Position numbers and translations under genes: made by a program
Shown: one piece after another, positions 2 to 61,262 of the stretch
Layout: each line of letters begins with the position of its first letter
Position numbering within the stretch: the first letter of the stretch is position 1
The notes under the pieces: model-generated
Seen by the model: only the letters and a program-made list of their open reading frames with translations
Told to the model about the DNA's origin: nothing
Databases searched by the model: none
NCBI GenBank assembly: GCA_965261395.1
Contig: OZ253462.1
Span: 768,001-832,000 of the forward strand
Direction: 5' to 3'
From: Candidatus Latescibacterota bacterium
GTDB taxonomy: Bacteria > Latescibacterota > UBA2968 > UBA8231
Length of the DNA stretch: 64,000 nt

Positions 2-1435
2 GGCCACGACTTCCGGCCCGAGTACTTGCAGATTGGTGAGCTGGTCCGCGAGCTGCCCGACTGTAGGGTTCTCGCTTGCACCGCCACGGCCACGCCGGTG
101 GTACGCGACGAAATCCTCGAGCGCCTCGGGCTACCGAGCGACACCCCACAGCTATTGCGCGGCTTTGCCCGGCCCAACCTTTCGCTGCGAGTCACCGAAA
201 TCAACAGCGCCGCCGAGCGGCGACAGCGGATTGATGCGCTGCTGGCCGAAGCCCTCGATGCGCCCGACCAAAGGCCAGGTACTGCCATAGTCTATGCCCC
301 CACCCGCAAGAGTACCGAAGAAGAAGCCGCCCGCCTCCAAGGGGATGGCTGGCGAGCGGCCGCCTATCACGCGGGCATGGAGGGGCCAGACCGAGACTCC
401 GTTCAGAGCGCCTTTATCGAAGACCGAGTCCAAATCGTCGTCGCCACCAACGCCTTTGGCATGGGCATTGACCGCGCCGATGTGCGCGCCATTGCCCACT
501 TGGCCCCGCCCAGCTCGGTCGAGGCGTACTATCAGGAGGTCGGCCGCGCCGGCCGTGATGGAGAGGATGCCTACTGCTTGCTGCTGATCTCCTCCGGCGA
601 CATGGCACTGCGCCGCCGCCTGATCGAAAGCGATGCCCTTGAGCAGACGGTGGTCCAGCACAAGTGGAATCTCTTTTTGGAACTGATGCGCTGGAGCGAA
701 GGCGGCTCCTGTCGCCACGACGCTATTCTGCGCTACTTCGGCGACGAGGAGGAAACGCTCTCGGGCTGTGGCCGCTGCGACGTCTGCTGTAACCTCTCCC
801 ATGCCGAAGCAGGCGACGCCACAGAAGCCGCCACTACTGTGCGCAAAGCCCTGTGCGCGGTCGCCCGTCTGCACGGACGCTACGGCATCCAAATGGCGGC
901 CAAGCTCCTGCGCGGCACCACGGACGCACGCCTTGCACGCGACGGCCTAGATCGGACCCCCACCTTTGGCATCCTCAAGGAGCATTCTGAGCGGTGGCTT
1001 TTGCAACTTTTGCGCCGGCTAGTAACGGCCGGTTGGGTCGATTTCTTCGGTGGAGAGCGGCCGGTCGTGGTCCTCACGGAGGAAGGACGCCAAGTCATTC
1101 ACGCCGAGCGGCCCGCGCGCCTGCTGCTGCCGCCGAAGTCGGCCTCGCTCCCGGCATCTCGCACCGCGCACGTCCGTCCTCGCATCCCCGATCCCGGCGG
1201 GGAATTCGACGAAAACGCTCAAGCCCTCTTTGAGTCACTGCGCCATTATCGCATGACACTGGCCCGCGACGAAAAGGTGCCTCCCTACGTCATCGCCAGC
1301 GACCGCACACTCCGCGATATCGTCCTGCTGCGGCCTGCCAACCTCGAAGAACTCAAGCTGGCGCACGGCATTGGTCCGGCCAAGGCCGAAAAATACGGCG
1401 ACGGCCTACTAGCTATCGTCCAACAGGCCGCCTAA
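2..1435 (+). CDS. recQ: ATP-dependent DNA helicase RecQ (5' end lies outside the window)
   Basis: Frame from base 2 reads GHDFRPEY. Contains TATAT, VATNAFGMGID, YYQEVGRAGRDG, a Cys Zn-binding/RQC region and a C-terminal HRDC (VPPYVIASDRTL...GIGPAKAEKYG). Confidence 0.95.
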   Translation, partial: GHDFRPEYLQIGELVRELPDCRVLACTATATPVVRDEILERLGLPSDTPQLLRGFARPNLSLRVTEINSAAERRQRIDALLAEALDAPDQRPGTAIVYAPTRKSTEEEAARLQGDGWRAAAYHAGMEGPDRDSVQSAFIEDRVQIVVATNAFGMGIDRADVRAIAHLAPPSSVEAYYQEVGRAGRDGEDAYCLLLISSGDMALRRRLIESDALEQTVVQHKWNLFLELMRWSEGGSCRHDAILRYFGDEEETLSGCGRCDVCCNLSHAEAGDATEAATTVRKALCAVARLHGRYGIQMAAKLLRGTTDARLARDGLDRTPTFGILKEHSERWLLQLLRRLVTAGWVDFFGGERPVVVLTEEGRQVIHAERPARLLLPPKSASLPASRTAHVRPRIPDPGGEFDENAQALFESLRHYRMTLARDEKVPPYVIASDRTLRDIVLLRPANLEELKLAHGIGPAKAEKYGDGLLAIVQQAA

Positions 1436-1441
1436 CTCGCT
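1399..1441 (+). repeat. 43-bp direct repeat, copy 1 (recQ 3' end and stop)
   Basis: cgacggcctactagctatcgtccaacaggccgcctaactcgct; 42/43 identical to 10473-10515. Confidence 0.95.
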
Positions 1442-1476
1442 GGTCTGCGCCGGGGGCCGGTGGGATAAGCCACCAC

Positions 1477-1518
1477 CCCTCGGTCGGCCACCAGCTTGCC
1501 AAACAGGTCACGCACCAA
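1477..1518 (-). pseudogene. Short IS982 transposase fragment
   Basis: Minus strand reads LVRDLFGKLVADRG, versus [14 protein letters not shown] in the intact IS982 transposase at 35583-36461. Confidence 0.7.
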
Positions 1519-1530
1519 GCCCCACCCATA

Positions 1531-1551
1531 ATTTCAAAGCAGTCCACTACC
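1531..1551 (+). repeat. 21-bp ATTTCAAA-N6-CACTACC motif (IS1-like end)
   Basis: atttcaaagcagtccactacc; same pattern as the copies at 33598, 44955, 45252, 45281 and 45409. Confidence 0.75.
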
Positions 1552-1690
1552 GTTTTTTGCTTGACGTAAACAGTTACAGGCCCTTTTTATTTTTGAATGT
1601 AAGCATTTGCATCTGGTTGGCGTCTTTTCGCCGCGCGGAATTCGTTTGTACGTCGTCTCCTTCTAAAGAGGAAAAGGAGTACCAAGATTT

Positions 1691-4600
1691 ATGCCGTTTC
1701 TCATGGTCTGTCTTGTTGGCCTGTTGGTTTCCGTTCACGCGAGTCCGGTTTCGTCGCCGGTCATTTCGGGTCAGGTGCGGCTGTCGGATGGGTTGCTGGT
1801 GGCGGGTGCGCAGGTGGTGCTGTTTGACGTAGCCGATCTGCGCCGAGGGGCGGTGGGGCAAGCCACCACCGACGAGGCGGGGCAGTTTGCACTGCCGCTG
1901 GCGGCGGGAGGGGCGTTCGTGCTGCCGCAAGAGGTTGGGTTGGGGCCAAACTATCCCAATCCGTTCAATCCCTCGACGCTGATTCCCTATCAACTTTCGG
2001 CCTCTTCGCCGGTGCGGTTGGAGGTGTTCAACATTTTGGGGCAGCGGGTGACGACGCTGGTGGATGGCGAACAAGGGGCCGGGTCGTATGTGGCGCGGTG
2101 GGATGGCACGGATGCGGCAGGTCGTGCGGCGGCCTCGGGGGTGTATTTCTACCGCTTGACCGTGGCAGGTGCGCATTGGACGGGCAAGATGGTGCTGGTG
2201 GATGGGCAGGCGGGGGTGCCGCTGGGCGGGGCGCGTGGTGCGGCGGTGCCGCTGGCGGCGGGATCAACGGCGACGTATGGGTTGGTGGTTTCAGGGGAAG
2301 GGCTGGTTACGTATGTGGACGCGGACTTTGTCGTCGCGGCGGGTCAGGGGCCGGTGGCTATTGAGATGGCGGCGGAGCCGCAGGTGCGGATGAAGGTGAC
2401 GGTGGCGACGTTGGAGGGGATGCTCGGCGATGTGAATGCCGATGGCCACGTGGACATGGACGACGGGCTGCTGGTGGCCATGTATAGTGTTCATCCCGCC
2501 CTATCGCTTCCTAACCACGGCTTGATGACGCTGGGCGATGTCAACTGCGATGGTCGCGTCGAGCTGGCCGACGCGGGGCTGCTGGCCACCTATGTAGCCC
2601 ATCCGTCCGATGCGGCGGTCGCGTCGCTGCGGATTGGTCAACGGGGTGGGTACTCGCTGAACCCGGTTACGGAGGTGGTGTGGGCCTCGATCCTCGGCAC
2701 GGACAAAAAAGACGCCACGGTGGCGCGGTTGCTCGACGGGGTGCCGGTGCTGCTGTCGGGTGTCCTGCCTGTTGACGGCGAGGATCGCCTCTATCTTGGC
2801 CTGGACCGCGCCTACTGGACCCAACAGGGCGGCAAACGGCTCTACGAAGCCTTAAAGCAGCGCTTTCCGGCCACGCCCATTCACGTGGAGCCGTCGATCG
2901 GTGTGGTTCGGCAGGATGGGAAGGGGACAAGGCGGCCAACCACGACGGCCCTCAGAACCGTGGCCCCGGTGACGCGCTTTGGTCCGCCGATCTCCTTTGC
3001 TGAATCGCCCAACGCCGGGTTGCCCGACCACAGCAAGGCACAGCAGGTGGTGGGCCGTATTGGGGTGCCGCATGACGCGACGGTCGGCTCTGTTGCCGTG
3101 GCGGTGGATATCACCCACCCATCTAGCAGTGACCTGAAGATTGAGCTCGTCGCGCCGAGTGGGGTCGCGACGACGCTCTACGACGGGGTCCGAGAGGGGA
3201 TTAACCCCGAGGCCAACCTCGTCGGCGAGTTGCCGGTTTCCACCGAACTGCAAGGACAGCGGGCCAAGGGTACTTGGCAATTGCGTGTTGGTGACTACGA
3301 ACGGGGCGATGCAGGAACCTTGAACTCCTGGACGTTGACCGTGACCCCGGCACAGGATGCTGAGGAGACCGAAGAGCCGATCAACGTCTTTCTGGACACT
3401 TTCCAGGAAGGACTCGGGGCATGGCGCACCACCGAGTGGGAAGCGGCATCGCTTGATACGGACACGAGTGTTCCTGGTGAAGGTCCGGGGAACGTGGTTG
3501 CAAAAGCAGAAGGCTGTTCGGTCTGTTTCCTGACCCTTGAGACACCGGTTGACCTCTCAGCATACGACTCTGTTACCCTGTCGTTCTACCGCTGGCTCGA
3601 CCCCGGCACCGCAGACAACGAGTTCCTCGGTATTGATATCGGTAACAACGGCTCCTACCAACGGCTGACGAACTGGAGCGGTCAAAACGCTGACGGTCAG
3701 TGGCACCTCGAGACCTTTACGCTCTCCGGTGACCAGATCAGTAATGCCTTTTCTCTGCGGTTCTTCGGTATCACCACCAATGACTTCACCACCGTTGCAA
3801 TCGACAATGTGATGATTGCTGCTGCGCCGGGGTCGGTCGTTGTCGAGCCGGTTGAGCCGGGGGAACCTGAAGAAGAGGAGGAGCCGGGGGAACCTGAGGA
3901 GGACCCAGAAGAAACGGAACAGCCAGACCTCACCGTTACGTACGCCGTTACGCCGCCACGGTCCGCGCAGTCGGGCAGCACGATTGCGCTCTACACACGA
4001 GTAACCAATACCGGCACCACCCCCTCGGCAGCAACCGTTGCACGCCTCTACCGACACACCGCGACAACCCCAACCCCAACCCTTGGCGGGACACCAGAGA
4101 CCGCAACCACCGCAATCCCGGCCTTGGAGCCCGGTTCGTCAATACTCAAAGCACTGAGAGCGACTGCACCAGCTATCCCATCAACCTACCACTATTACGT
4201 CTGTGTGGAGGGTAGCTGCAGCGAAGCCGCCGCCGTGTCCGTGCAGACAACGACAGACACGACCCCTGAACCAGAAACACCGACAACCGTCACCGGCTTC
4301 TCTGTTACCAATCCAACCGCTACCCCATCATCACTACAGTCAACTGACACTCTGACGATACAGGCAACCATTACCAATACCGGTACCGAGACAGACGATG
4401 CAGCTATCTATGTCTACCGACACACACAAGAGACAACGACACCACGAACTGGCGGTACCAGAGAATCAAACACCGCAACAACCGGCACCCTTGCACCAAA
4501 CGCATCAGTAACGGTAACAAGTACCCACAGTGCACCAACAGTATTACGTACAACACGGTACTACTACTACATCTGTGCTGACACCTTCTGTACAACTGAT

Positions 4601-5569
4601 CCTGCTACTGTCCTCGTCCGTGTCAAACCGGAAGATCCTGGTCCGCCGTACGAACACTGCTTTGCTATCCCAAAACGAAGTACCCCCATGGGTGGTGATG
4701 CTATGCTTTCCCTCTTTATTGGAGATCCAGACGGAGAGATCCCTAGAACCTGTGGCACCATCACCCTTGGCGGTGTTGAAACCACCACCGGTGTCCGCGG
4801 CTTCATTGCATCCGGCCACGTTGTTGTGAGGAGCACCTATGATGATGAAATATCACGATCCATTGGAGACTACTCCAGAACTGCCACTCTGATCGGACAC
4901 GGCAGGAGCGCTGGCTTTGCCAAAGAGCTGCAGCACTTCCTCGGCAAAGTCTTCCAAATGCCATCCTTCTCCGTGGAAGGAGACAAGCGAATCCTCTCCA
5001 CTGACGCTGCTCTCGTTGCGTACCCACATCCCAAAACAGCCGGCTGTTCTCTGACCTGGAGCGGTGACGGTGAAGACTTCTGCCTTGACCTCGGAAGCGA
5101 TGACTACATTGAACGCCTCGTCCCACTCACCATCCGCGGTGCAAATGGTGAAACCTACAAGGTTGTCGGATCACAAGAGCCGACAGAAGGATTGCCTATC
5201 CAAGTCTCTGGCGCTGTAACCGGTATTCCCATTAGCAGTGTTGCCAAGGGGGATGAGCTCTTGGTGGGTGGTGGTTATACTACTGACGGATTCTCTTATG
5301 AATATGTTAACTACTCCCGTGGCGGCAAATCCACCAGAGGAAACAGTGGTGCTCCTGTCTACACCATTCCTGATGCAGATGGCAACGTTCGCATCGTGGG
5401 GGTTCTGATAGGATCACGGCCAGACGAAGACCCAAGCGAATCTACGCTCATTTTCACCTCATGGAAAAAGGTCAAAGACGAATTCAACCTACGACCGATT
5501 GCCGCTCCCGATGGCCCCACCGAGGAAGATGAGGCGGATTTGGCGGGATTGTTTTCAGCCTTTGATTGA
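1691..5569 (+). CDS. Secreted multidomain S1 (trypsin-like) serine protease, copy 1: signal peptide, FlgD-Ig/T9SS-like domain, dockerin, proprotein-convertase P domain, CARDB-like Ig repeats, S1 domain
   Basis: Hydrophobic N-terminus; NYPNPFNPST...WDGTD...SGVYFYRL; GDVNADG and GDVNCDG dockerin repeats; VDITHP...DL...GTWQLRVGD...GTLNSWTL P domain; PDLTV...VTNTG; catalytic motifs ASGHVV, DAALV, GNSGAPV. Confidence 0.8.
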   Translation: MPFLMVCLVGLLVSVHASPVSSPVISGQVRLSDGLLVAGAQVVLFDVADLRRGAVGQATTDEAGQFALPLAAGGAFVLPQEVGLGPNYPNPFNPSTLIPYQLSASSPVRLEVFNILGQRVTTLVDGEQGAGSYVARWDGTDAAGRAAASGVYFYRLTVAGAHWTGKMVLVDGQAGVPLGGARGAAVPLAAGSTATYGLVVSGEGLVTYVDADFVVAAGQGPVAIEMAAEPQVRMKVTVATLEGMLGDVNADGHVDMDDGLLVAMYSVHPALSLPNHGLMTLGDVNCDGRVELADAGLLATYVAHPSDAAVASLRIGQRGGYSLNPVTEVVWASILGTDKKDATVARLLDGVPVLLSGVLPVDGEDRLYLGLDRAYWTQQGGKRLYEALKQRFPATPIHVEPSIGVVRQDGKGTRRPTTTALRTVAPVTRFGPPISFAESPNAGLPDHSKAQQVVGRIGVPHDATVGSVAVAVDITHPSSSDLKIELVAPSGVATTLYDGVREGINPEANLVGELPVSTELQGQRAKGTWQLRVGDYERGDAGTLNSWTLTVTPAQDAEETEEPINVFLDTFQEGLGAWRTTEWEAASLDTDTSVPGEGPGNVVAKAEGCSVCFLTLETPVDLSAYDSVTLSFYRWLDPGTADNEFLGIDIGNNGSYQRLTNWSGQNADGQWHLETFTLSGDQISNAFSLRFFGITTNDFTTVAIDNVMIAAAPGSVVVEPVEPGEPEEEEEPGEPEEDPEETEQPDLTVTYAVTPPRSAQSGSTIALYTRVTNTGTTPSAATVARLYRHTATTPTPTLGGTPETATTAIPALEPGSSILKALRATAPAIPSTYHYYVCVEGSCSEAAAVSVQTTTDTTPEPETPTTVTGFSVTNPTATPSSLQSTDTLTIQATITNTGTETDDAAIYVYRHTQETTTPRTGGTRESNTATTGTLAPNASVTVTSTHSAPTVLRTTRYYYYICADTFCTTDPATVLVRVKPEDPGPPYEHCFAIPKRSTPMGGDAMLSLFIGDPDGEIPRTCGTITLGGVETTTGVRGFIASGHVVVRSTYDDEISRSIGDYSRTATLIGHGRSAGFAKELQHFLGKVFQMPSFSVEGDKRILSTDAALVAYPHPKTAGCSLTWSGDGEDFCLDLGSDDYIERLVPLTIRGANGETYKVVGSQEPTEGLPIQVSGAVTGIPISSVAKGDELLVGGGYTTDGFSYEYVNYSRGGKSTRGNSGAPVYTIPDADGNVRIVGVLIGSRPDEDPSESTLIFTSWKKVKDEFNLRPIAAPDGPTEEDEADLAGLFSAFD

Positions 5570-5659
5570 GCAAATCCACTTCCATGCCCACCGATTCGAG
5601 GGCCGTTACCCCAGCCACGGCTCGGCGTTCGCGTCGCCGAAGATAATCGGGTCGCCGAC
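5544..5659 (-). pseudogene. C-terminal remnant of a small clan AA (retropepsin-like) aspartic protease, copy 1
   Basis: Minus strand reads VGDPIIFGDANAEPWLG, then a 1-bp frameshift, then TALESVGMEVDLLNQRLKTIP, which resembles the family's C-terminal LLGVTALE...VDP.NQRL motif. Confidence 0.65.
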
Positions 5660-5704
5660 GGTTGAGCTAAGCGGGGATGCGACGAATGTATCGAGCGCGT
5701 CGAG

Positions 5705-6067
5705 CTAATCGGTCGCAGCCGGCGGCTGGGAGATGCGAATCCGCCCGCCGCGAATCGTGATGATCGCCTGCATTTCAAGCGCCTGCCGATGCCGCTTGAG
5801 CAACTCGGCCATTAAGGCGATGCGTTGCTCGGTCGGCACGTCCGGGAGGCGTACCAACCCCGCATGTGGAACTTCCCAAACGAACACCAGCTTGCCGAAA
5901 TCGGTATCAATCGTCACGAGAATTCTTTGTTCGTTAGAGGCGATTTTGAGCAACGCCCGGTCGCCTGGGTCTGGTCCAAGCGCACGCGACTCGACGACGT
6001 CATGGCCTTGGCCACGCAACCACTCGGCTAGCAGGCGGCCGGCACACTGGTCAATGAGGAATTTCAA
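5705..6067 (-). CDS. DUF5615 / PIN-like toxin (VapC45-like)
   Basis: TTG start overlaps the antitoxin stop; MKFLIDQC...LRGQGHDV...RILVTIDTDFG. Confidence 0.85.
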   Translation of the reverse strand: MKFLIDQCAGRLLAEWLRGQGHDVVESRALGPDPGDRALLKIASNEQRILVTIDTDFGKLVFVWEVPHAGLVRLPDVPTEQRIALMAELLKRHRQALEMQAIITIRGGRIRISQPPAATD

Positions 6068-6312
6068 GGGGCTGCTATGGCTACGGCGGACAGCGTATCG
6101 TGCGAGATCACTGCGTGCGCGTAGGCAACACACGCCTGCAGGTCGGCCGGTTCGAGTTCGGGGTAATCGGCTAAAATGGCCTCTGGATCTACCCCTTGGG
6201 CCAACAAGCTCAGGATGAGTTCCACCGAGATACGCATGTCGCGAATGATGGGCTTGCCATCGAAAATATCCGGACGCACCGTGATGCGCTTGAGGAGTTC
6301 GGAATGGGTCAT
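6064..6312 (-). CDS. DUF433 antitoxin
   Basis: RITVRPDIFDGKPIIRDMRISVELILSLLAQG...ILADYPEL; coupled to the PIN gene. Confidence 0.9.
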   Translation of the reverse strand: MTHSELLKRITVRPDIFDGKPIIRDMRISVELILSLLAQGVDPEAILADYPELEPADLQACVAYAHAVISHDTLSAVAIAAP

Positions 6313-6474
6313 GTTGCACTCCGTGGTGGGTTTGATCGTAAGGCTGCGTAACGTCAATTAATATAGTATAGGGGAATTTCGTGGTTAGGAAATTCTTTGC
6401 TACTTTGAGGGGATGTTGTAGTTAGCGTTTTTTCGCCGCACGGCTATTCTGCTCGCAAAGGAGTACAAGGAGTT

Positions 6475-9400
6475 ATGCCGTTTCTCATGGTCTGTCTTGT
6501 TGGTCTGTTAGTTTCCGTTGACGCGAGTCCGGTTTCGCCGCCGGTCATTTCGGGTCAGGTGCGGCTGTCGGATGGGTTGCCGGTGGCGGGTGCTCAGGTG
6601 GTGCTGTTTGACCTAGCCGATCTGCGCCGAGGGCCAGTGGGGCAAGCCACCACCGACGAGGCGGGAACGTTTGCGCTGCCGCTGGCGGGTGGAGCTTTGG
6701 TGCTGCCGTCAGAAGTTGGGCTGGGGCAAAGCTATCCCAATCCGTTCAATCCTTCGACGCTGATTCCCTATCAACTTTCGGCCCCTTCGCCGGTGCGGTT
6801 GGAGGTGTTCAACATCTTGGGTCAGCGGGTGACGACGCTGGTGGATGGCCAGCAAGGGGCGGGGGCGTATGTGGCGCGGTGGGATGGCACGGATGCGGCG
6901 GGTGGTGCGGCCGCCTCGGGGGTGTATTTCTACCGCTTGATGGTGGATGGCGCGCATTGGACGGGGAAGATGGTGCTGTTGGATGGGCAGGCGGGGGTGC
7001 CGCTGGGCGGGGGGAGTGTGGCGAAGGTACCGCTGGCGGCGGGATCAACGGCGACGTATGGGTTGGTGGTGTCGGGGGAAGGGCTAGTTACGTATGTGGA
7101 CGCGGACTTTGTCGTCGCGGCGGGTCAGGGGCCGGTGGAGCTGGTGGTGGCGGCGGAACCGAATGTGCGGGGGAAGGTGGTGGCGACGTTGGAGGGGATG
7201 CTCGGCGATGTGAACGCCGATGGCCGAGTGGATCTGGACGACGGGCTGCTGGTGGCCATGTATAGTGTTCATCCCGCCCTATCGCTTCCTAACCACGGCT
7301 TGATGACGCTGGGCGATGTCAACTGCGATGGTCGCGTCGAGCTGGCCGACGCGGGGCTGCTGGCCACCTATGTAGCCCATCCGTCCGATGCGGCGGTCGC
7401 GTCGCTGCGGATGGGTCAACCGGGTGGGTACTCGCTGAACCCGGTTACGGAGGTGGTGTGGGCCTCGATCCTCGGCACGGAGAAAAAGGACGCCACGGTG
7501 GCGCGGCTGCTCAACGGGGTGCCGGTGCTCCTCTCGGGCGTCCTGCCTGTTGACGGCGAGGATCGCCTCTATCTTGGCCTGGACCGCGCCTACTGGACCC
7601 AACAGGGCGGCAAACGGCTCTACGAAGCCTTAAAGCAGCGCTTTCCGGCCACGCCGATTCACGTGGAGCCGTCGATCGGTGTGGTTCGGCAGTCTGGCAA
7701 GGTGACAAGGCGGTCGACCACGACCGCCCTCAGAACTGTTGCCCCGGTGACGCGCTTTGGTCCGCCGATTTCCTTTGCTGAATCGCCCAATGCCGGGTTG
7801 CGCGACCACAGCAAGGCACAGCAGGTGGTGGGTCGTATTGGGGTGCCGCATGACGTGACGGTCGGCTCTGTTGCCGTGGTGGTGGATATCACCCACCCGT
7901 CTAGCAGTGACCTGAAGGTTGAGCTCGTGGCACCGAGCGGGGTGGCTACGACACTCTACGACGGTACACGAAGTGGTATTGGCTCCGAGGCCGACATCAC
8001 CGGCACCATTGTAACGACGGACGCACTGCAGGGACAGGCTGCCAAGGGGACCTGGCAATTGCGTGTTGGTGACTACGAACGGGGCGATGCAGGAACATTG
8101 AACTCCTGGACGTTGACCGTGACCCCGGCACAGGATGCTGAGGAGACCGAAGAGCCGATCAACGTCTTTCTGGACACTTTCCAAGAAGGACTTGGCGGGT
8201 GGCGCACCACCGAGTGGGAAGCGGCATCGCTTGATACCGACAGCGGTGTTCCTGGTGAAGGTCCAGGAAACATCGTTGCAAAAGCAGAAGGCTGTTCGGT
8301 CTGTTTCCTGACCCTTGAGACACCGGTTGACCTGTCAGCCCAGGACACCGTCACCCTCTCCTTCTACCGCTGGATGGATCCCGGGATGACCGACAATGAG
8401 TTCCTCGGTGTTGATATCGGCAACAACGGCTCCTACCGTCGGCTGACGAGCTGGAACGGTCAGCATGCTGACGGCCAATGGCACTTGGAGACCTTTACGC
8501 TCTCCGGGGACCAGATCAGTAATGCCTTTTCTCTGCGGTTCTTCGGGATCACCACCAATGACTTTACCACCGTTGCAATCGACAACGTGATGATTGCTGC
8601 TGCGCCGGGATCGGTCGTTGTCGAGCCGGTTGAGCCGGGGGAACCTGAGGAGGACACAGAAGAAACGGAACAGCCAGACCTCACCGTTACGTACGCCGTT
8701 ACGCCGCCACGGTCAGTGCCGTCGGGCAACACGATTGCGCTCTACACACGAGTAACCAACACCGGCACCACCCCCTCGGCAGCAACCGTTGCACGCCTCT
8801 ACCGACACACCGCGACAACCCCAACCCCAACCCTTGGCGGGACACCAGAGACCGCAACCACCGCAATCCCGGCCTTGGAGCCCGGTTCGTCAATACTCAA
8901 AGCACTGAGAGCGACTGCACCTGCGATCCCGTCAACCTACCACTATTACGTCTGTGTGGAGGGTAGCTGCAGCGAAGCCGCCGCCGTGTCCGTGCAGACA
9001 ACGACAGACACGACCCCTGAACCAGAGACACCGGCAACAATCACCGGCTTTTCCGTTACCAATCCAACCGCTACCCCATCATCACTCCAGTCAACCGACA
9101 CCCTGACGATACAGGCAACCATTACCAACACCGGCACCGAGACAGACGATGCAGCTATCCATATCTACCGACACACCAGTGAGACAACGACACCACGGAC
9201 TAGTGGTACCAGAGAATCAAACACCGCAACAACCGGTACCCTTGCACCAAACGCAACGGTTACTGTTACCAGCACTCACAGCGCACCAACCGTGTCACGT
9301 ACAACACGGTACTACTACTACGTCTGTGCTGACACCTTCTGTGCAAATACTCCTGCTACCGTCCTCGTCCGTATCAAACCGGAAGATCCTGGTCCACCGT

Positions 9401-10386
9401 ATGCACGGTGTTGGGATGTGCCAGAGCGAAGTACCCCTATGGGTGGTGATATTATGTTTACCCTCTTTATTGGAGATCCTGGCGGAGAGATCCCTAGAAG
9501 ATGTGGCACCATCACCCTCGGCGGTGTTGAAACCACCACCGGTGTCCGCGGCTTCATTGCATCCGGCCACGTTGTTGTGAGGAGCACCTATGATGACGAA
9601 ACGGCACGATCCATTGGAGACTACTCCAGAACTGACACTATGATCGGACACGGCAGGAGCGCTGGCTTTGTCAAAGAGCTGCAGCACTTCCTCGGCAAAG
9701 TCTTCCAAATGCCATCCTTCTACACCGAAGGAGACAAGCGATTCCTTTCGGTCGCCGAGCAAGTAAACGCCGCCGGACGAGACAAATTTGTCGGGTGGGA
9801 GACAGAGGAGGACAAACGATTCCTTTCAGGCGACGCCGCCCTCGTTGCATACCCGCATCCCAAGACACCCGGCTGTTCCCTGACCTGGAGCGGTGACGGC
9901 GAAGAGTTCTGCCTTGACCAAGGAAGCGATGACTACATTGAACGTCTCGTCCCTCTCACCGTCCGCGGTGCAAACGGCAAGACCCACAAGGTTGTCGGAT
10001 CACAAGAGCCGACAGAAGGGCTGCCCATCCGGGTCTCTGGTGCCGTGACCGGCATTCCCATCAATAGTGTTGCTAGAGGGGATAAGCTCTTGGTGTTTGG
10101 GGAAGACACAAATGGCTTTTTCTATGAATACATCAATCACTCTCGTGGCGGTGGCTCCGTCAGAGGAGACAGCGGTGCTCCCGTCTACACCGTTCCTGAT
10201 GCAGCTGGCAACGTCCGCATCGTGGGGATTCTGATAGGGCTAGCAGATGTAGACAATCTTGCATTCAACTCATGGAAGACAGTTGAGGAAGAGTTCAACC
10301 TGCGACCGATTGCCGCTCCCGCTCCCGATGGCCCCACCGAGGAAGATGAGGCGGATTTGGCGGGATTGTTTTCAGCCTTTGATTGA
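6475..10386 (+). CDS. Secreted multidomain S1 serine protease, copy 2 (paralog of 1691-5569)
   Basis: Same domain order, long near-identical blocks; motifs ASGHVV, DAALV, GDSGAPV. Confidence 0.8.
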   Translation: MPFLMVCLVGLLVSVDASPVSPPVISGQVRLSDGLPVAGAQVVLFDLADLRRGPVGQATTDEAGTFALPLAGGALVLPSEVGLGQSYPNPFNPSTLIPYQLSAPSPVRLEVFNILGQRVTTLVDGQQGAGAYVARWDGTDAAGGAAASGVYFYRLMVDGAHWTGKMVLLDGQAGVPLGGGSVAKVPLAAGSTATYGLVVSGEGLVTYVDADFVVAAGQGPVELVVAAEPNVRGKVVATLEGMLGDVNADGRVDLDDGLLVAMYSVHPALSLPNHGLMTLGDVNCDGRVELADAGLLATYVAHPSDAAVASLRMGQPGGYSLNPVTEVVWASILGTEKKDATVARLLNGVPVLLSGVLPVDGEDRLYLGLDRAYWTQQGGKRLYEALKQRFPATPIHVEPSIGVVRQSGKVTRRSTTTALRTVAPVTRFGPPISFAESPNAGLRDHSKAQQVVGRIGVPHDVTVGSVAVVVDITHPSSSDLKVELVAPSGVATTLYDGTRSGIGSEADITGTIVTTDALQGQAAKGTWQLRVGDYERGDAGTLNSWTLTVTPAQDAEETEEPINVFLDTFQEGLGGWRTTEWEAASLDTDSGVPGEGPGNIVAKAEGCSVCFLTLETPVDLSAQDTVTLSFYRWMDPGMTDNEFLGVDIGNNGSYRRLTSWNGQHADGQWHLETFTLSGDQISNAFSLRFFGITTNDFTTVAIDNVMIAAAPGSVVVEPVEPGEPEEDTEETEQPDLTVTYAVTPPRSVPSGNTIALYTRVTNTGTTPSAATVARLYRHTATTPTPTLGGTPETATTAIPALEPGSSILKALRATAPAIPSTYHYYVCVEGSCSEAAAVSVQTTTDTTPEPETPATITGFSVTNPTATPSSLQSTDTLTIQATITNTGTETDDAAIHIYRHTSETTTPRTSGTRESNTATTGTLAPNATVTVTSTHSAPTVSRTTRYYYYVCADTFCANTPATVLVRIKPEDPGPPYARCWDVPERSTPMGGDIMFTLFIGDPGGEIPRRCGTITLGGVETTTGVRGFIASGHVVVRSTYDDETARSIGDYSRTDTMIGHGRSAGFVKELQHFLGKVFQMPSFYTEGDKRFLSVAEQVNAAGRDKFVGWETEEDKRFLSGDAALVAYPHPKTPGCSLTWSGDGEEFCLDQGSDDYIERLVPLTVRGANGKTHKVVGSQEPTEGLPIRVSGAVTGIPINSVARGDKLLVFGEDTNGFFYEYINHSRGGGSVRGDSGAPVYTVPDAAGNVRIVGILIGLADVDNLAFNSWKTVEEEFNLRPIAAPAPDGPTEEDEADLAGLFSAFD

Positions 10387-10476
10387 GCGAATCCACTTCC
10401 ATGCCCACCGATTCGAGGGCCGTTACCCCAGCCACGGCTCAGCGTCCTCCGCGCCGAAGATAATCGTGCCGCCGAC
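10361..10476 (-). pseudogene. C-terminal remnant of clan AA aspartic protease, copy 2
   Basis: Minus strand reads VGGTIIFGAEDAEPWLG, the same frameshift, then TALESVGMEVDSLNQRLKTIP. Confidence 0.65.
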
Positions 10477-10515
10477 GGCCTGCTAGCTATCGTCCAACAG
10501 GCCGCCTAACTCGCT
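10473..10515 (+). repeat. 43-bp direct repeat, copy 2 (orphan recQ 3' end)
   Basis: cgacggcctgctagctatcgtccaacaggccgcctaactcgct, followed by the GGAG RBS of the next gene. Confidence 0.95.
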
Positions 10516-10532
10516 CATCAGGAGAACGTTTT

Positions 10533-11504
10533 ATGGCTACAATTCGCTGGGGCATCATCGGCTGCGGCGACGTTACAGAAGTAAAGAGCGGCCCCGCCCT
10601 GTACAAAACTCGCGATTCCGAACTGGTGGCGGTCATGCGCCGCGACGCGGACAAAGCCCGCGACTATGCCGTGCGCCACGGCGTGCCCAAGTGGTACGAC
10701 CAAGCCGTCGCACTCATCGGCGACCCAGCCGTCGATGCGGTCTATATCGCGACGCCCCCCGACACCCACGCGCACTACACCGCCCAAGTCGCCCGCGCCG
10801 GCAAACCTGTTTACGTCGAAAAGCCAATGGCGCGCAACCACGGCGAGTGTGTGGCGATGATCGACGCCTGCCGCCGGGCCGGGGTACCGCTTTTCGTCGC
10901 CTACTACCGCCGCGCCTTGCCCGCCTTTCTCAAGGTCAAGTCGCTGGTCGAGGAAGGGGCCATCGGCGCGGTGCGCTTCGCCTCCATCGCACTCTGCCAA
11001 CCCGCGTCAGAGGATCCCGACGACCTGCCTTGGCGCGTCGTCCCAGAGGTCTCGGGCGGCGGCCACTTCTTCGACTTAGCCTCACACCAGTTCGACTTCC
11101 TCGACTTTCTGCTCGGCCCCATTGCCCACGCCTCGGGCCACGCGACCAACCAAGCCAAGCTCTACCAAGCCGAAGATGCCGTTACCGCCAGCTTCGCATT
11201 CGAGTCCGGCGCACTCGGCGCAGGAGTCTGGAACTTCGCCGCCGACCAGCGCTGCGACCGAATCGAAATCGGCGGCGACAAGGGCCGGATCGCCTTTTCC
11301 ACGTTCGCCTTCACCCCGGTCGAATTGACTACCAACGCCGGAACCCAAACCTTCGCCATTGACCCGCCCCAACACGTCCAGCAACCCCTGATTCAGACGG
11401 TAGTCAATGCCCTGTTGGGCCGAGGCGAATGCCCCAGCACCGGCGCAAGCGCCGCCCGCACTAGCCGGGTCATGGACCAAATCGTCCACGGCCATGCCGC
11501 CTAA
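10533..11504 (+). CDS. Gfo/Idh/MocA family oxidoreductase
   Basis: WGIIGCG, VDAVYIATPP, VYVEKPMA, SGGGHFFDLASH. Confidence 0.92.
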   Translation: MATIRWGIIGCGDVTEVKSGPALYKTRDSELVAVMRRDADKARDYAVRHGVPKWYDQAVALIGDPAVDAVYIATPPDTHAHYTAQVARAGKPVYVEKPMARNHGECVAMIDACRRAGVPLFVAYYRRALPAFLKVKSLVEEGAIGAVRFASIALCQPASEDPDDLPWRVVPEVSGGGHFFDLASHQFDFLDFLLGPIAHASGHATNQAKLYQAEDAVTASFAFESGALGAGVWNFAADQRCDRIEIGGDKGRIAFSTFAFTPVELTTNAGTQTFAIDPPQHVQQPLIQTVVNALLGRGECPSTGASAARTSRVMDQIVHGHAA

Positions 11505-14948: not shown

Positions 14949-15051
14949 TTTGCCTATATGAAAGCCGAACTGCCCATACCCCCTCCTCGGATCACTTGGC
15001 GAGGCGTCGACTCTGAATCATGGAGGAGAACACCGGGATCCTGGCACGGAG

Positions 15052-16038
15052 ATGTTCAACTGGAATCCGTTCTTTCTCTCGGTGTCGGTGGACGATGGAC
15101 GGAGCTGGACCGGGGAATGGCCGATGAATCTGCTGGGCGGGCCGTACCATGACGCGATGATCCAGATGCCGAACGGGCGCATGGTCATGCCGAGCCGGAT
15201 CTGCCACAGCAACAACCATCATCTGGGGATGGAGTACAAGCGGGTGAGCAGTTACGGCTATTGGAAGGGATTGCGCCTCCAAGTCAGCGGGCACTATCAC
15301 TATCCGGAGGTGGATATTGCGGCGGCGAGTTACTCGGATGACGAGGGGCGGACCTGGCGGATGTGCAGGGGGCAGTTGATGGGCTGGTTCGATGCGGACG
15401 GCATTCCCAACGGGCGGGGCGGGATTACGGCAGTGGACGAACCGAGTGTTGCAGTGTGTTCGGATGGGCGCTTGATGATGATGGCGAGGTCCACCGTGGG
15501 GCGCCTAGTGCAGACGTATAGCGAAGATGGCGGGGAAACCTGGACGCCGGTGCTGCCAAGCGATCTTGCGGCTTCGTATTCTCCACCGCGGCTGCGGCGG
15601 ATCCCCAGTACCGGAGACCTGTTGTGCGTGTGGAACCAGACGTCGCGGGAGGAGATCTTGAGGGGGTATCGACGGGGCCGCTTGTCTGCGGCGATTTCAA
15701 CGGACTGCGGGGCGAGCTGGTCGCATTTCAAGACGATCGAGGTCAGCGGGGGAATGGAGGATGTGGATCGGGTCCCGTCGCAGTATCCCGTCAGTCCCGT
15801 GATCGCGCTGCCGGAATTGGGAAGTTTGCCCGAGGACTTCGCCACGTTTGACTATGCAAATGCGTGGTTCCACGGAGATCGCGTTCTGCTGATGTATCAT
15901 CGAAGCTGGGTTGAGGCCGATGAACATTCCGCAGAGGCGGTTACGTTGGGGGAGCGGAAGAGTATAGCCCGCAAACCGGGGGAACTGGTGCTGCGCGTCT
16001 ATCCGCTGGGATGGTTTTACGACAGCGACGGGCCCTGA
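15052..16038 (+). CDS. Sialidase-like BNR/Asp-box protein, probably N-terminally truncated
   Basis: Four Asp boxes (SVDDGRSW, SDDEGRTW, SEDGGETW, STDCGASW) and DEPSV; the frame is open back to 14962 without a start codon. Confidence 0.75.
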   Translation: MFNWNPFFLSVSVDDGRSWTGEWPMNLLGGPYHDAMIQMPNGRMVMPSRICHSNNHHLGMEYKRVSSYGYWKGLRLQVSGHYHYPEVDIAAASYSDDEGRTWRMCRGQLMGWFDADGIPNGRGGITAVDEPSVAVCSDGRLMMMARSTVGRLVQTYSEDGGETWTPVLPSDLAASYSPPRLRRIPSTGDLLCVWNQTSREEILRGYRRGRLSAAISTDCGASWSHFKTIEVSGGMEDVDRVPSQYPVSPVIALPELGSLPEDFATFDYANAWFHGDRVLLMYHRSWVEADEHSAEAVTLGERKSIARKPGELVLRVYPLGWFYDSDGP

Positions 16039-16170
16039 GACCCGTCCGGCGCGTGTGAGGAAACTGCCGTCCGGGCAACACCTGCCCGGCGCGGCTTCCC
16101 CTTGAGATGGACGGCTAGGGTCAGGCACAAGCTGACGCCCTATAGCCGCAACGACATGGAGCAATGACAA

Positions 16171-17058
16171 ATGGAAACTCGGACCCTCGGCAACACCGAC
16201 CTGACCGTCTCTCGCCTCGGTTTCGGCGGTGCCCGGATCGGCTATGAAGATATGACGCCAGACCAGGCCGATCAGTTGCTCAATGGCCTCATCGATGTCG
16301 GCGTGACCCTGATCGACACGGCGGCCTGCTATGACGACAGCGAGGAACAGATAGGCAAGTGGATCGGCAGCCGGCGGGATGAATATGTCCTCGCCTCGAA
16401 GTGTGGGCACGTGACCGGCGGCGCAACCGGCCTGCCGTGGTCTGCCGACACGATCGCTCACAGCATAGATCGCTCCCTTCAGCGTCTGAAGACGGATCGA
16501 ATCGACCTGATTCAGCTTCATAGCTGCTCGGCAGAGGTGCTAGCTGGAGGAGAAGCGGTCGAGGCCATCCTGAAGGCAAAGGAGGCGGGCAAGGTCCGGT
16601 ACATCGGCTACAGCGGCGATGGGGACGACGCACTGTACGCCATAGGAATGGGCGTTTTTAGCACCCTTCAGACCTCGTACAACGTCGTCGACCAGGACGC
16701 GCGCCGCAAAGTCCTCCCGGCGGCCCAAGCAGCTGGCATGGGGGTCATCGCCAAGCGTCCCCTGGCAAACGCATCTTTCAAGACCGTCGCATCACGGTAC
16801 GACTACGCGGACGTCTACTGGGAGCGTTCGCAGAGCATGGTGTTTCCGGAAGACGCGCCAACCCACGGCGTCGAGCTCGCGCTCCGGTTCAATCTTTCGC
16901 ACGAGTTGATCGACTCCGCCATCGTGGGCACCACCAGGATCGAAAACGCCAGGAAGAACATCGAGACAATCGGAAAGGGCAATCTTCCCGCAGAGGTCAT
17001 TGCGTCGCTGTTCGAGCAGTTCGACCGGGTGGGTGGAAGCTGGGAGCCGCGAGGCTAG
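16171..17058 (+). CDS. Aldo/keto reductase
   Basis: RTLGNTDLTVSRLGFG, IDTAACY, SLQRLKTDRIDLIQLH, GKVRYIGYS. Confidence 0.93.
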   Translation: METRTLGNTDLTVSRLGFGGARIGYEDMTPDQADQLLNGLIDVGVTLIDTAACYDDSEEQIGKWIGSRRDEYVLASKCGHVTGGATGLPWSADTIAHSIDRSLQRLKTDRIDLIQLHSCSAEVLAGGEAVEAILKAKEAGKVRYIGYSGDGDDALYAIGMGVFSTLQTSYNVVDQDARRKVLPAAQAAGMGVIAKRPLANASFKTVASRYDYADVYWERSQSMVFPEDAPTHGVELALRFNLSHELIDSAIVGTTRIENARKNIETIGKGNLPAEVIASLFEQFDRVGGSWEPRG

Positions 17059-17168
17059 CAAGTCACCGATGCAGATCCTGCCCGACATTTATCTTCTCGT
17101 CGGCTTCGCAGTTGGCGAGGCAACGCGACAATCCGTTCTGGGGTTGGATCCGGAGGCAAAAGGAATAG

Positions 17169-19181: not shown

Positions 19182-19182
19182 T

Positions 19183-19977: not shown

Positions 19978-20031
19978 GGTCGTTCATCCTCCCTGTGGCT
20001 TAAAGTCAAATCAAGCGTTCAAAAGCTGGCC

Positions 20032-36530: not shown

Positions 36531-36590
36531 AAGAGACAGACAAAGAGACAGACAAAGAGACAGACAAAGAGACAGACAAAGAGACAGACA
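36531..36590 (+). repeat. Perfect 12-bp tandem repeat, five copies
   Basis: aagagacagaca at 36531, 36543, 36555, 36567 and 36579. Confidence 0.95.
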
Positions 36591-36962: not shown

Positions 36963-36991
36963 TTATCCCTCGTCCGCGTCCTCTCGGTGCA
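36963..36991 (-). repeat. Diverged duplicate of the symporter gene 3' end and stop
   Basis: 24/29 identical to 38222-38250; reads HREDADEG* versus RRVGADEE*. Confidence 0.7.
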
Positions 36992-41658: not shown

Positions 41659-42003
41659 CTACAAGGATCCTTTGAACAGGATCGCGCTCATGGTGGACAA
41701 CCAGCTAGCTAGGACGATGCCGATGGTCCAGCGGAAATAGGTGTCGATCTTCTCGTGGAGCGTTTGAGCCGACGTGTCGATCTTCTCGTGGAGCGTCTGA
41801 AACGACACCTCCCGCTTCCCATCCGACGTGTCAATCTTCTCATTCAGCGTCTGAAACGACACCTCCCGCTTCTCATCCAGCGTCTGAGCCGACACATCCA
41901 ACTTCTCACTGACGGCTCGCACATCGCTTTCAATCAGCTCCAAGCGGCGGTTGATCTGCTGCAGCACGTCGCGGGTGGTTATCTCAGAGGTTTCAGGGGC
42001 CAT
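41659..42003 (-). CDS. Small coiled-coil protein with 11-aa repeats and C-terminal membrane anchor (DUF1640/Bdr-like architecture)
   Basis: SxQTLxEKxxx repeats, then FRWTIGIVLASWLSTMSAILFK. Confidence 0.7.
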   Translation of the reverse strand: MAPETSEITTRDVLQQINRRLELIESDVRAVSEKLDVSAQTLDEKREVSFQTLNEKIDTSDGKREVSFQTLHEKIDTSAQTLHEKIDTYFRWTIGIVLASWLSTMSAILFKGSL

Positions 42004-59034: not shown

Positions 59035-59112
59035 GTTCGTCTCCTTTATCGGCGAATTTGAGTACCCTATATTTCATTTCCTCCCGACGACTGTCAACCT
59101 CAGAGACCTATT

Positions 59113-60249
59113 ATGAAAATCGCCGCTATTGAAACCTTCGACCTCACCTGCCCCCTTGAACGCCCCTTTGGCTGGTCCCAAGGCTGGATCGACCAGCGCA
59201 GCACCACGCTCGTCAAAGTCTCCACGGACGACGGCCTCGTCGGCTGGGGCGAAGGCGCGGCCGCCGGTCTCATCGACGGCTTGCTCGCCCCGCTGCTCAT
59301 CGGCCAAGACCCCATGGACCGCGCGGGGCTGTGGGAGCGCATGTTCCACGCCCTCTACAACGGCAATAACGCGGTCGGCCTAGCCGGCAGCGCCCTTTCC
59401 GCGCTCGACATTGCCCTTTGGGATCTCGCGGGCAAAGCCACCGGCCTCCCGGTCTGCGCCCTCCTCGGCGGCAAGGTCCGCGATAAAGTGGCCGTCTATG
59501 CCACCGGCCTCTACTATACCGAAGGCGAGTTTCCCGACCGCCTGCTCGACGAGGCGCGGGGCTATGTGGCCGCAGGCTTCAAGGGGATGAAGACCAAGGT
59601 CGGGGGGCTATCCATCGCCGAGGATGTTGCGCGCGTCAGGGCGCTACGCGAGGCCATCGGCCCGGACATTCATCTCATGGTCGATGCCAACGAAGCCTAC
59701 AACGCCACCACGGCGATTCGCCTTGGCCAGAAGCTGGCCGAGCTGGATCTGGTGTGGTTTGAAGAGCCGGTCAACGCCCAAGACTTGGACGCCTATTTGG
59801 AAATCAAAGCGGCGCTACCCATGGCCATTGCCGGCGGCGAAAACCTGCGCACTCGCTACGAATTCAAGCCCTATCTGACGCGCCGCGCCTACGACATTGT
59901 CCAGCCCGACATCATGCACTGCGGCGGCATCACCGAAATGCAGCGCATCTGCGCCATGGCCAATGCCTGCGGCATTCAGGTCAACCCCCACGTCTGGGGA
60001 TCGCCCGTTATGATCGCCGCCACTTTGCATCTAGCCGCCACCTTGCCGCCCTGCCCGCCAGCACGCAACGCCCAACCCTATATGCAGGAGCCGGTGATGG
60101 AATTCGACCGCACGCCGAGTGCCATCCGTCAAGAACTATGCGCGGTGCCGTTTGACCAAGAGGACAGCTTTGTGCTCGTGCCGACCGGGCCGGGATTGGG
60201 GATTGAGGTGGATGAAGAGGTGGTCGGGAATTTGCGGGCCTCTCGGTGA
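59113..60249 (+). CDS. Mandelate racemase/MLE family protein
   Basis: DIALWDLAGK, KTKVG, MVDAN, WFEEP, AGGE, PHVWG, PGLGIEVDE. Confidence 0.93.
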   Translation: MKIAAIETFDLTCPLERPFGWSQGWIDQRSTTLVKVSTDDGLVGWGEGAAAGLIDGLLAPLLIGQDPMDRAGLWERMFHALYNGNNAVGLAGSALSALDIALWDLAGKATGLPVCALLGGKVRDKVAVYATGLYYTEGEFPDRLLDEARGYVAAGFKGMKTKVGGLSIAEDVARVRALREAIGPDIHLMVDANEAYNATTAIRLGQKLAELDLVWFEEPVNAQDLDAYLEIKAALPMAIAGGENLRTRYEFKPYLTRRAYDIVQPDIMHCGGITEMQRICAMANACGIQVNPHVWGSPVMIAATLHLAATLPPCPPARNAQPYMQEPVMEFDRTPSAIRQELCAVPFDQEDSFVLVPTGPGLGIEVDEEVVGNLRASR

Positions 60250-61172
60250 CGGCGAGCGACCGGACGGAGCGTCGATCACTAGGCCTGACCCTTGCCTTTA
60301 CCACTCTGCTGTTGTGGGGTGCCCTGCCCGTGGTGCTCAAGCTGCTGTTGCAATCGCTGGACCCCTTTACCGTTACTTGGTACCGTTTCCTGCTCGCGGG
60401 TGCTATGCTAGTCCCCGTCGTCCACTTTCGCTACGGCCTCGCGTCCCCCTTTCGGATCCGCGGCGCGGCCTTGGCTCTGGCGGTGGTTTGCGTCCTCGGC
60501 CTCGGCGGCAACTACCTGACGTATTTGATGGGCCTGAGCCGCATCTCGCCTGGCTCGGCTCAGATTGTGATGCAGTTTTCGCCAATAATTGTACTCTTGG
60601 GCGGGCTGATCCTCTTCAAAGAATCCTTTAGCCGTTTGCAGTGGATCGGCCTCGGCGTGCTAATCGTGGGGATGGGGCTCTTTTTTAATCAGCGCTTCGC
60701 CGAACTGCTCTCCTTGGTGGAAAACTACGGCATCGGCGTTTGGCTCGTCTTTACCTCGGCCATCCTCTGGGGAGCTTTCATGCTGGCGCAAAAACCCCTG
60801 CTGCGGCACTTGCCCTCGACCTCGATCATGGCCTTGGTCTATTGGTTTGGCATGATGCTGTTCCTGCCCTTGGCCCAGCCGAGCCGCATACTCGACCTGC
60901 CGGCCATCCCCTGCTTGCTCTTGGCCTGCTCGGTCGTCTTCACCCTCGTCTCCTATCTCAGCTTCGCCGAATCGCTCAAGCGGATGGAAGCTTCGCGCAT
61001 AGGTGCGCTGGTCTCGCTGACGCCCCTGATCACTATAGCCATGATGGGCCTACTCGCTCTCTTCGACCCCAACCTAGTCCCTATGGAACCCCTCAACAAA
61101 CTCGCCGTCGGCGGTACCATACTAGTCGTCATCGGATCTATGTGCGGCACCTTGGGGAGGAGCGCCTCCTAA
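60246..61172 (+). CDS. DMT/EamA family transporter
   Basis: Two EamA repeats, ~10 transmembrane segments (LLWGALP, WYRF, LFKESFS). Confidence 0.92.
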   Translation: MTASDRTERRSLGLTLAFTTLLLWGALPVVLKLLLQSLDPFTVTWYRFLLAGAMLVPVVHFRYGLASPFRIRGAALALAVVCVLGLGGNYLTYLMGLSRISPGSAQIVMQFSPIIVLLGGLILFKESFSRLQWIGLGVLIVGMGLFFNQRFAELLSLVENYGIGVWLVFTSAILWGAFMLAQKPLLRHLPSTSIMALVYWFGMMLFLPLAQPSRILDLPAIPCLLLACSVVFTLVSYLSFAESLKRMEASRIGALVSLTPLITIAMMGLLALFDPNLVPMEPLNKLAVGGTILVVIGSMCGTLGRSAS

Positions 61173-61214
61173 CGGCCTAAAGCAAAGCGAGAAAACATCC
61201 CGAGAAACTCATTA

Positions 61215-61262
61215 GCCGGGATTGAGGGTTGAAGTGGATGAAGAGGTCGTCGCGAGATTGCG
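61215..61262 (+). repeat. Diverged duplicate of the 3' end of the enolase-family gene
   Basis: 41/48 identical to 60189-60236; PGLRVEVDEEVVARLR versus PGLGIEVDEEVVGNLR. Confidence 0.85.

Follow-up and report, generated by a model that had tools for sequence, protein, structure and literature searches.

Gene gain in uncultured phyla is mostly credited to mobile elements. Integrase-borne islands, such as tycheposons, use an attachment site of about 40 nt with one copy in the host and one in the element, as set out in the sections of the preprint drawn on here (bioRxiv 10.1101/2020.12.28.424599). Homology-facilitated illegitimate recombination (HFIR) needs no recombinase: one side is anchored by homology and the opposite side is joined illegitimately. 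The parts of two papers considered here propose it as the origin of strain-specific segments and displaced 3′ ends in type VI secretion system (T6SS) and rhs loci (PMC2884548, PMC5361080). In the portion of one of them that concerns C-terminal displacement at rhs, contact-dependent inhibition (CDI) and T6SS loci, a new 3′ part and a downstream gene arrive by way of the conserved gene body and the old end is pushed downstream, with varied toxin tips and immunity genes kept as a reservoir (PMC5361080). We analyzed a 64,000-nt stretch of a Candidatus Latescibacterota genome (contig OZ253462.1, positions 768,001 to 832,000 of the forward strand; this whole stretch is hereafter the window) in which the 3′ ends of three genes, encoding RecQ, a sodium:solute symporter and an enolase-family enzyme, each occur twice: once in the gene (the resident copy) and once farther downstream as a stub, with other DNA (the cargo) in between.

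As in rhs, CDI and T6SS loci, the old 3′ end is displaced downstream of an incoming module, but here the displaced pieces are near-identical, non-coding 29–58-bp tails that come from housekeeping genes, and no cargo is related to its target. The islands of that preprint, which lie at 3′ ends of tRNA, tmRNA or protein genes, likewise have direct repeats at both sides, each about 40 nt long, and one copy makes the target gene complete; in our case, however, there is no integrase, reused site or element end, and the cargoes are very small. HFIR as seen in natural transformation (Acinetobacter, Streptococcus pneumoniae and Pseudomonas stutzeri) fits the CGACGG joint and intact anchor gene found here, but recQ has no visible donor tract, and 29–58 bp of the recipient are duplicated. 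Replicative template switching and duplication-loss, known chiefly from structural variants in eukaryotes and from the gene order of organelles, resemble this locus in the short flanking target duplication, an apparent microhomology at a joint and a cargo that may have been copied from nearby. The gene-end stubs are a known kind of scar and not a new mobile system. What is new is a fourth case in a relative, a 2.2-kb insertion or deletion without a stub, and the truncated-fragment ends of the recQ cargo. We lean towards reading the repeats as junction scars of an illegitimate, recombinase-independent rearrangement, because the four repeats (29–49 nt) are unrelated to one another, neither a recombinase nor element ends were found with the cargoes, and cargo termini are truncated.

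Duplicated gene ends in the window and in a relative

The coordinates and identities of the three duplications claimed in an earlier, sequence-only reading of the window were exactly reproduced. The recQ end occurs at 1399–1441 and 10473–10515 (42/43 identical), the symporter end at 38222–38250 and 36963–36991 (24/29), and the enolase-family end at 60189–60236 and 61215–61262 (41/48). Adding flanking sequence extended none of these pairs, and the longest exact run within each is 10–32 nt. Pfam assigns the target genes to RecQ, SSF and MR_MLE. That reading had described three independent insertions, each leaving a copy of the upstream gene's 3′ end behind its cargo; the pairs are as it described them, and insertion could be shown for the recQ case alone.

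We compared gene ends with their downstream DNA by aligning the last 60 nt of each gene plus 10 nt, without gaps and scored +1/−2, to the 15 kb that follow on that strand, for 54 hand-picked gene ends in the window. Best scores were 40 for recQ, 26 for the enolase-family gene and 15 for the symporter gene, against a background of 8–12; the sole other outlier (67) came from the tandem paralogues big1 and big2 within the recQ cargo. Scores of 15 or more were reached by 5/600 random 70-mers, two of which (35 and 42) were real repeats, and by 1/1000 shuffles of the symporter end. For the symporter pair this gives a per-gene p of ~0.001–0.005, or 0.05–0.25 chance matches expected over ~54 gene ends. 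The recQ and enolase-family repeats are securely far above chance, and the symporter repeat is marginal on sequence evidence alone. It is strengthened by its in-register stop codon, by the position of the stub 6 nt past the last cargo open reading frame (ORF), and by its last residue, G, which is that of the major allele (protein cluster P0177). No further short repeats bracketing DNA were found in the whole window when 50-nt tiles were compared with the next 12 kb, a scan that recovered the recQ and enolase-family cases, the big1/big2 paralogy, copies of insertion sequences (ISs) and paralogue similarities.

A RecQ search of genomes returned at least 600 matching stretches, of which the best 80 loci were kept. 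Among the matches listed, the closest is L001 (OZ220721.1), a complete Latescibacterota chromosome from a metagenome-assembled genome (MAG), with a RecQ 88% identical in amino acids; the next locus has 60%. L001 has an empty site, in which the recQ stop codon is followed by 23 nt and then by the ATG of the same oxidoreductase gene that lies behind the cargo in the window, with synteny onward for 10 kb. The stubs are true remnants of the upstream gene's 3′ end, as described earlier, and they adjoin the original downstream neighbour: the recQ stub in the window is followed by the same ribosome-binding site (RBS) and ATG of this GFO oxidoreductase gene as in cargo-free L001. At the single variable site of the repeat, the stub carries the L001 base and the resident copy a synonymous change, so that the downstream scar does match the gene end of a cargo-free relative, as the sequence-only reading had suggested it should. 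The recQ cargo is an insertion relative to the nearest genome, and the only one of our cases for which insertion is shown; the alternative is that L001 lost the cargo precisely between the repeats.

L001 also contains a fourth case. A 49-nt direct repeat (4601–4649 and 5171–5219, 42/49 identical) surrounds a 520-bp cassette with a 127-aa retropepsin-like aspartyl-protease gene (4688–5071, minus strand) between the convergent genes for OadA and BPL, and the repeat contains both gene ends. This case is an independent recurrence, found outside the initial selection of the window. The genome-wide gene-end count proposed earlier was carried out for the window and for the 80 recQ loci of other genomes. 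In these loci, 7/1036 gene ends scored 19 or higher; two of the seven represent the L001 event, leaving 5/1018 in the other 79 loci. Inspection of three of these five, and of three lower-scoring matches, gave a comparable scar only at locus L055, and the remaining inspected matches were paralogues, AT-rich matches or short matches of 22–23 nt. L055 belongs to an Oscillospiraceae MAG that is unrelated; there, 64 nt comprising a gene end and a hairpin recur 206 nt farther downstream with 88% identity (~3560–3770, minus strand).

Pfam searches of 84 ORFs (61 + 23) covering the cargoes on both strands found no recombinase (integrase, transposase or resolvase), and no hidden recombinase was found by Pfam among the antisense ORFs of the cargoes. 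The only transposase genes in the window, IS30-like (31.8 kb) and DDE_Tnp_1_3 (35.5 kb), lie outside the cargoes. Terminal inverted repeats were absent from the ends of cargoes 2 (symporter) and 3 (enolase family) and of the L001 cassette, and no tRNA, tmRNA or Rfam element was present as an integration target. We saw by eye no motif common to the four repeats, and the duplications, at 29, 43, 48 and 49 nt, are not of fixed length. The earlier statement that there is neither an integrase nor a shared att core is upheld for these ORFs and the four repeats compared.

Three kinds of element were considered and set aside: a transposon or IS, for which terminal inverted repeats, a cargo transposase and a target duplication of fixed length are missing; an integrase-mediated island, with no tyrosine or serine recombinase in the 84 ORFs; and a C-terminal displacement toxin array, as the genes hit encode RecQ, a symporter of the SSF family and an enzyme of the MR_MLE family and are not polymorphic toxin and immunity genes. 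A variant of the second, in which the repeats would be attL and attR of small elements that carry the target gene's end, with the integrase encoded elsewhere or lost, is in our view highly unlikely. Repeats of 29–49 nt, one of which restores the gene, are the classic pattern of integrase islands, and the exact runs in each pair (10–32 nt) agree with it. Yet that same lack of a tyrosine or serine recombinase, the truncated gene fragments at the ends of cargo 1 (recQ), and cargoes that are single genes of 0.5–1.2 kb all speak against such elements, and one trans-acting integrase cannot serve all cases because the four repeats are unrelated in sequence.

The recQ cargo and its junctions

The recQ case has the following features, in window coordinates.

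2–1435, plus strand: C-terminal 477 codons of recQ (Helicase_C, RecQ_Zn_bind, RQC and HRDC by Pfam), cut by the left window edge
1399–1441, plus strand: resident copy of repeat 1, comprising the final 34 nt of recQ, its stop codon and the following 6 nt
1442–10472, plus strand: cargo 1, 9.0 kb, made up of a short piece, a pair of paralogous genes for surface proteins, two remnants of an aspartyl-protease gene and a toxin-antitoxin (TA) pair
1443–1477, plus strand: fragment resembling the interior of the big genes (1836–1870 and 6620–6654, ~30/35), at the left edge of cargo 1
1691–5569, plus strand: big1, 1292 aa (FlgD_ig, P_proprotein and CARDB by Pfam), with 85% amino acid identity to big2
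5541–5663, minus strand: remnant 1 of a retropepsin-like aspartyl-protease gene (blastn, 83% to L001 4724–4847)
5705–6067, minus strand: DUF5615/Mut7-C-like toxin gene (Pfam)
6064–6312, minus strand: DUF433 antitoxin gene, whose stop codon overlaps the toxin gene start (Pfam and translation)
6475–10386, plus strand: big2, 1303 aa, paralogue of big1 (FlgD_ig, P_proprotein, CARDB)
10358–10477, minus strand: remnant 2 of an aspartyl-protease gene (blastn, 88% to L001 4724–4844), ending in CGACGG where the recQ stub starts
10473–10515, plus strand: stub of repeat 1, 17 nt upstream of the oxidoreductase ATG
10533–11504, plus strand: GFO/IDH/MocA oxidoreductase gene, which originally lay directly downstream of recQ (Pfam; synteny with L001)

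Cargo 1 is a patchwork of truncated pieces without defined element ends. The DUF433/DUF5615 pair sits between big1 and big2 on the opposite strand, and the GC content of the cargo 1 genes is inside the range of the window. The last ~10 codons and the stop codon of both big1 and big2 are supplied by an antisense aspartyl-protease remnant (120 nt after each). No homologues of the big proteins were found in the 21 kb of L001. We also tried the cargo leader (1442–1690), the flank of remnant 1 (5664–5710) and the tail of big2 (10200–10360) as possible relatives of the OadA/aspartyl-protease/BPL region of L001, and rejected this when 51–138 of 200 shuffles reached the score.

The sequence-only reading had attributed the cargoes to a donor allele with DNA downstream of it, and this is not supported for recQ, where cargo 1 looks more local than foreign: its aspartyl-protease remnant matches a gene that is intact in L001 (4688–5071, minus strand), at a distance of 4.3 kb upstream of recQ, and remnant 2 shares the order and orientation of that gene relative to recQ. 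A local origin would suit tandem duplication plus deletion or a template switch within the genome. It had also proposed rejoining by microhomology just before the old stop codon. At the right junction of cargo 1, the six bases CGACGG are indeed both the end of remnant 2 and the first six bases of the recQ repeat; the same site, however, is the common end of both remnants. The value of CGACGG as evidence for a microhomology joint is weakened because it is also the shared end of a duplicated unit. Remnant 1 runs on past this common end into unrelated sequence.

These observations bear on a second explanation, in which a segment ending past the gene was duplicated in tandem and then partly deleted at microhomologies, so that the 29–58-bp stub would be left over and the cargo would be former upstream DNA. 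We consider this rather unlikely as an account of the cases together. In its favour, the match of the cargo 1 right end is to the interior of that L001 gene, with order and orientation preserved, and its 88% identity is inside the range of orthologous blocks (87–96%). Both ends of the deletion have CGACGG or CGACGA, the GC contents of EamA (the cargo of case 3) and of cargo 1 are within the window range, and recQ has no foreign tract. Against this, the window contains no paralogue of EamA or of the TA genes upstream of the enolase-family or symporter gene, a random duplication joint would have to produce the exact GTGA overlap seen in case 3, and a single deletion in the second copy is insufficient when both remnants share one end. 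The predicted first copy of the array would lie out of view, as the window begins inside recQ. The aspartyl-protease copy near the big genes also need not be local, because in L001 this gene forms a bracketed, apparently movable cassette.

The symporter and enolase-family cases

The features of the symporter case (case 2) are as follows.

38222–39982, minus strand: sodium:solute symporter (SSF) gene (Pfam and homologues)
38222–38250, minus strand: resident copy of repeat 2, the last 26 nt of the symporter gene and its stop codon
36992–38221, minus strand: cargo 2, 1.2 kb (GC 0.54 versus 0.59 for the window)
37417–38094, minus strand: HTH_66 gene of a TA module (Pfam)
36998–37420, minus strand: PIN_10 gene of the TA module, with an in-frame stop at 37352–37354 (Pfam and translation)
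36963–36991, minus strand: stub of repeat 2, 24/29, stop codon in register, gene-end score 15

The resident symporter ends in ..GADEE, the stub in ..DADEG and the 408-member cluster P0177 in ..GADEG (70 of the 120 listed termini inspected). The resident tail is the unusual form, and the stub shares the final G with P0177. The in-frame stop of the PIN_10 toxin gene follows codon 22, and the remainder matches positions 23–84 of the 84 in the Pfam profile. Adjoining the stub is a 101-codon ORF of low GC (0.44) in which the 12-nt unit AAGAGACAGACA occurs in four to five tandem copies (36531–36602). IS debris is found between a He_PIG/Por_Secre_tail gene and the symporter gene, including a DDE_Tnp_1_3 transposase gene (35538–36461, element 35490–36461), relics of it at 27896–27970 (an 81%-identical fragment) and 33862–33924 (a 90%-identical copy of the left end), and, within the same stretch, the IS30-like gene (HTH_38 + rve, 31811–32938). 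On the other side of the symporter gene, a 114-codon minus-strand ORF without a Pfam match contains imperfect 54-nt (33 + 21) repeats (41736–41909).

The enolase-family case (case 3) has these features.

59113–60249, plus strand: MR_MLE (mandelate racemase/muconate lactonizing) enolase-superfamily gene, 378 aa, with the unusual tail ..GNLRASR (Pfam)
60189–60236, plus strand: resident copy of repeat 3
60246–61172, plus strand: EamA/DMT transporter gene, whose GTG start overlaps the MR_MLE stop (GTGA) (Pfam)
61215–61262, plus strand: stub of repeat 3, 41/48, reading PGLRVEVDEEVVARLRRE.., without a stop codon, 28 nt upstream of the next ATG
61290–62471, plus strand: downstream gene, 393 aa, no Pfam match, with AAGGAG ahead

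The end of the EamA gene is thus followed by 42 nt, the stub, 28 nt that include AAGGAG, and the next gene. We compared the enolase-family protein with 120 listed homologues that are 82–99% identical. The 378-aa tail ..[GE]NLRASR was present in 4/120; the rest of those more than 90% identical, P0029 included, end in ..ERLR(AS/QG/RG) at 377 aa, and the ..ERLR.. tail occurs in 116/120, so the resident tail of the window is the unusual one. The stub encodes ..VVARLRRE.. and thus the common RLR. We regard it as decayed, because it has no stop codon and carries changes never seen in functional copies, including G to R in the motif PGLG.

The unusual tail is found on at least two protein backbones. 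P0009, which has the 378-aa tail, differs at 6 positions from P0014, a protein of the 377-aa type, and at 12–13 from other proteins of the 378-aa type, and the best match of P0039 to the window is limited to its C-terminal half. This pattern is what had been expected of recombination through the gene body, and it fits a spread of the tail, with whatever follows it, by crossovers inside the gene. The two backbones are evidence of recombination and not of how the arrangement arose.

Cases 2 and 3, which are putative insertions, could also belong to a mixed bag in which the recQ stub is the sole insertion scar, the symporter match is due to chance, and the DMT stub dates from long ago within an enolase-DMT operon that is conserved, being for example what remains of a lost paralogue or sequence kept as the 5′ region of the next gene. 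We think this unlikely. It would agree with the score of 15 in case 2, given the 0.05–0.25 chance matches expected per window, and with EamA being about as common as MR_MLE in the clade. The proteins P0104 (MR_MLE, 83%) and P0135 (EamA, 69%) are both listed with 2367 nt as the longest contig, which hints at adjacency in a distant relative through equal lengths alone; P0017 and P0123 have a common longest-contig value of 1,018,066 nt, which indicates co-occurrence and not adjacency. On the other side, the case 3 stub has 85% DNA identity to the resident end, whereas the two remaining MR_MLE paralogues of the window have ends that score as noise (10 and 12), and decay would be expected of a stub that dated back to the 83%-identical lineage. 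In case 2, the stub keeps the stop codon in register, adjoins the cargo and ends in the residue of the major allele.

The surroundings of these genes form a dense sugar-acid or similar catabolic neighbourhood. At least 10 PhyH (phytanoyl-CoA dioxygenase) genes lie within 13099–57550, two of them fused to HEAT repeats, alongside several MR_MLE, HpcH/HpaI aldolase and dehydratase genes. A TPR protein of 530 aa (20286–21878, minus strand) is without the C-terminal AhpC/thioredoxin-like domain of its L001 orthologue (766 aa, 18820–21120, minus strand), and L001 has ~470 nt extra where the two proteins differ.

A possible course of events and its significance

Under the scar reading that we favour, a DNA segment would have been joined immediately past the stop codon of a gene or a few bases short of it, with the second joint 29–58 bp upstream in the target, and the gene's last codons would have been doubled as a result. 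The gene-side copy would then complete the ORF, and the far copy would remain as a dead stub in front of the original neighbour and its RBS; each stub does adjoin the native upstream region of the next gene. The likeliest route may be a one-sided event of the HFIR type, anchored by homology and closed at a microhomology, or a closely related replicative template switch, which would lead out of the gene end and back into it while copying DNA from elsewhere in the same cell. Afterwards, the arrangement could spread between strains via ordinary crossovers inside the gene. Under any of the routes, selection would account for the location at 3′ ends, because with gaps of ~20–40 nt between genes in this tightly packed genome only joints that duplicate a gene end keep both neighbours intact.

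For HFIR to give the observed structure, its illegitimate joint would have to lie upstream of where the anchor ends. HFIR fits the junctions without being singled out, and template switching or tandem duplication plus deletion appear to fit equally well. In the earlier proposal of HFIR, the part that holds is illegitimate recombination; the observations do not set HFIR apart from a template switch or from duplication with deletion.

Several observations weigh against the scar reading. The upstream gene had been predicted to be phylogenetically discordant, and recQ is not: its last 200 nt are 95–96% identical to L001 with no discordant tract, and its divergence at 4-fold sites (8/43) is like that of the flanking ammonium transporter (34/235) and oxidoreductase (27/172) genes. 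HFIR may still apply, since a conspecific donor would leave no donor tract; the donor would already need the cargo behind its recQ. Remnants 1 and 2 lose their homology to L001 within 3 nt of each other, and window positions 10358–10515 are collinear with L001 minus 6.6 kb (4848–11436), as duplication plus deletion predicts. The scenario of deleted tandem copies, which the sequence-only reading had named as a refutation, is favoured by this collinearity for case 1 and has no source within the window for cases 2 and 3. The evidence for case 2 spans just 29 nt. In case 3, EamA orthologues at least 90% identical are about as numerous as enolase-family orthologues, and EamA has native GC at third codon positions (0.78). 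The EamA/DMT gene is not obviously acquired cargo, given these numbers and this composition, and its start codon runs into the stop of the gene before it, the arrangement of a settled operon, so case 3 may not be a recent gain. The window was chosen for these repeats, which biases the estimate of enrichment and leaves only the L001 case free of that bias. Finally, a 2.2-kb block (14958–17162, with BNR and aldo-keto reductase genes) is missing from L001 and has no border stub.

That block lies between convergent genes, and the upstream epimerase gene ends 4 codons earlier than in L001. Given this indel without a stub, the acquisition route claimed earlier does not extend to every gain. Gene-end scars recur in the lineage, yet they do not mark every insertion or deletion; the scar reading is supported in the window, and a general route is not yet.

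A stronger proposal is that the lineage has a systematic, recombinase-independent capture of single-gene cassettes at gene ends, by a staggered-cut or template-switching activity that has gone unrecognized and duplicates ~30–60 bp, with the aspartyl-protease cassette as a recurrent passenger or marker. The kinds of cargo observed are a TA pair, a transporter gene, a retropepsin-like gene and surface-protein genes. To our knowledge, a duplication of ~30–60 bp far exceeds the footprint of any known transposase. We regard such a system as quite improbable.

The gains or relocations seen here, of 0.5–9 kb, involve no mobility gene among the cargo ORFs and have left a readable scar. If gene-end stubs are common, they would provide a sequence signature with which to find insertions by illegitimate recombination, to orient them (by identifying the old side) and to date them. 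Common stubs would, in addition, make it easier to understand the movement of TA modules and individual genes that have no transposase.

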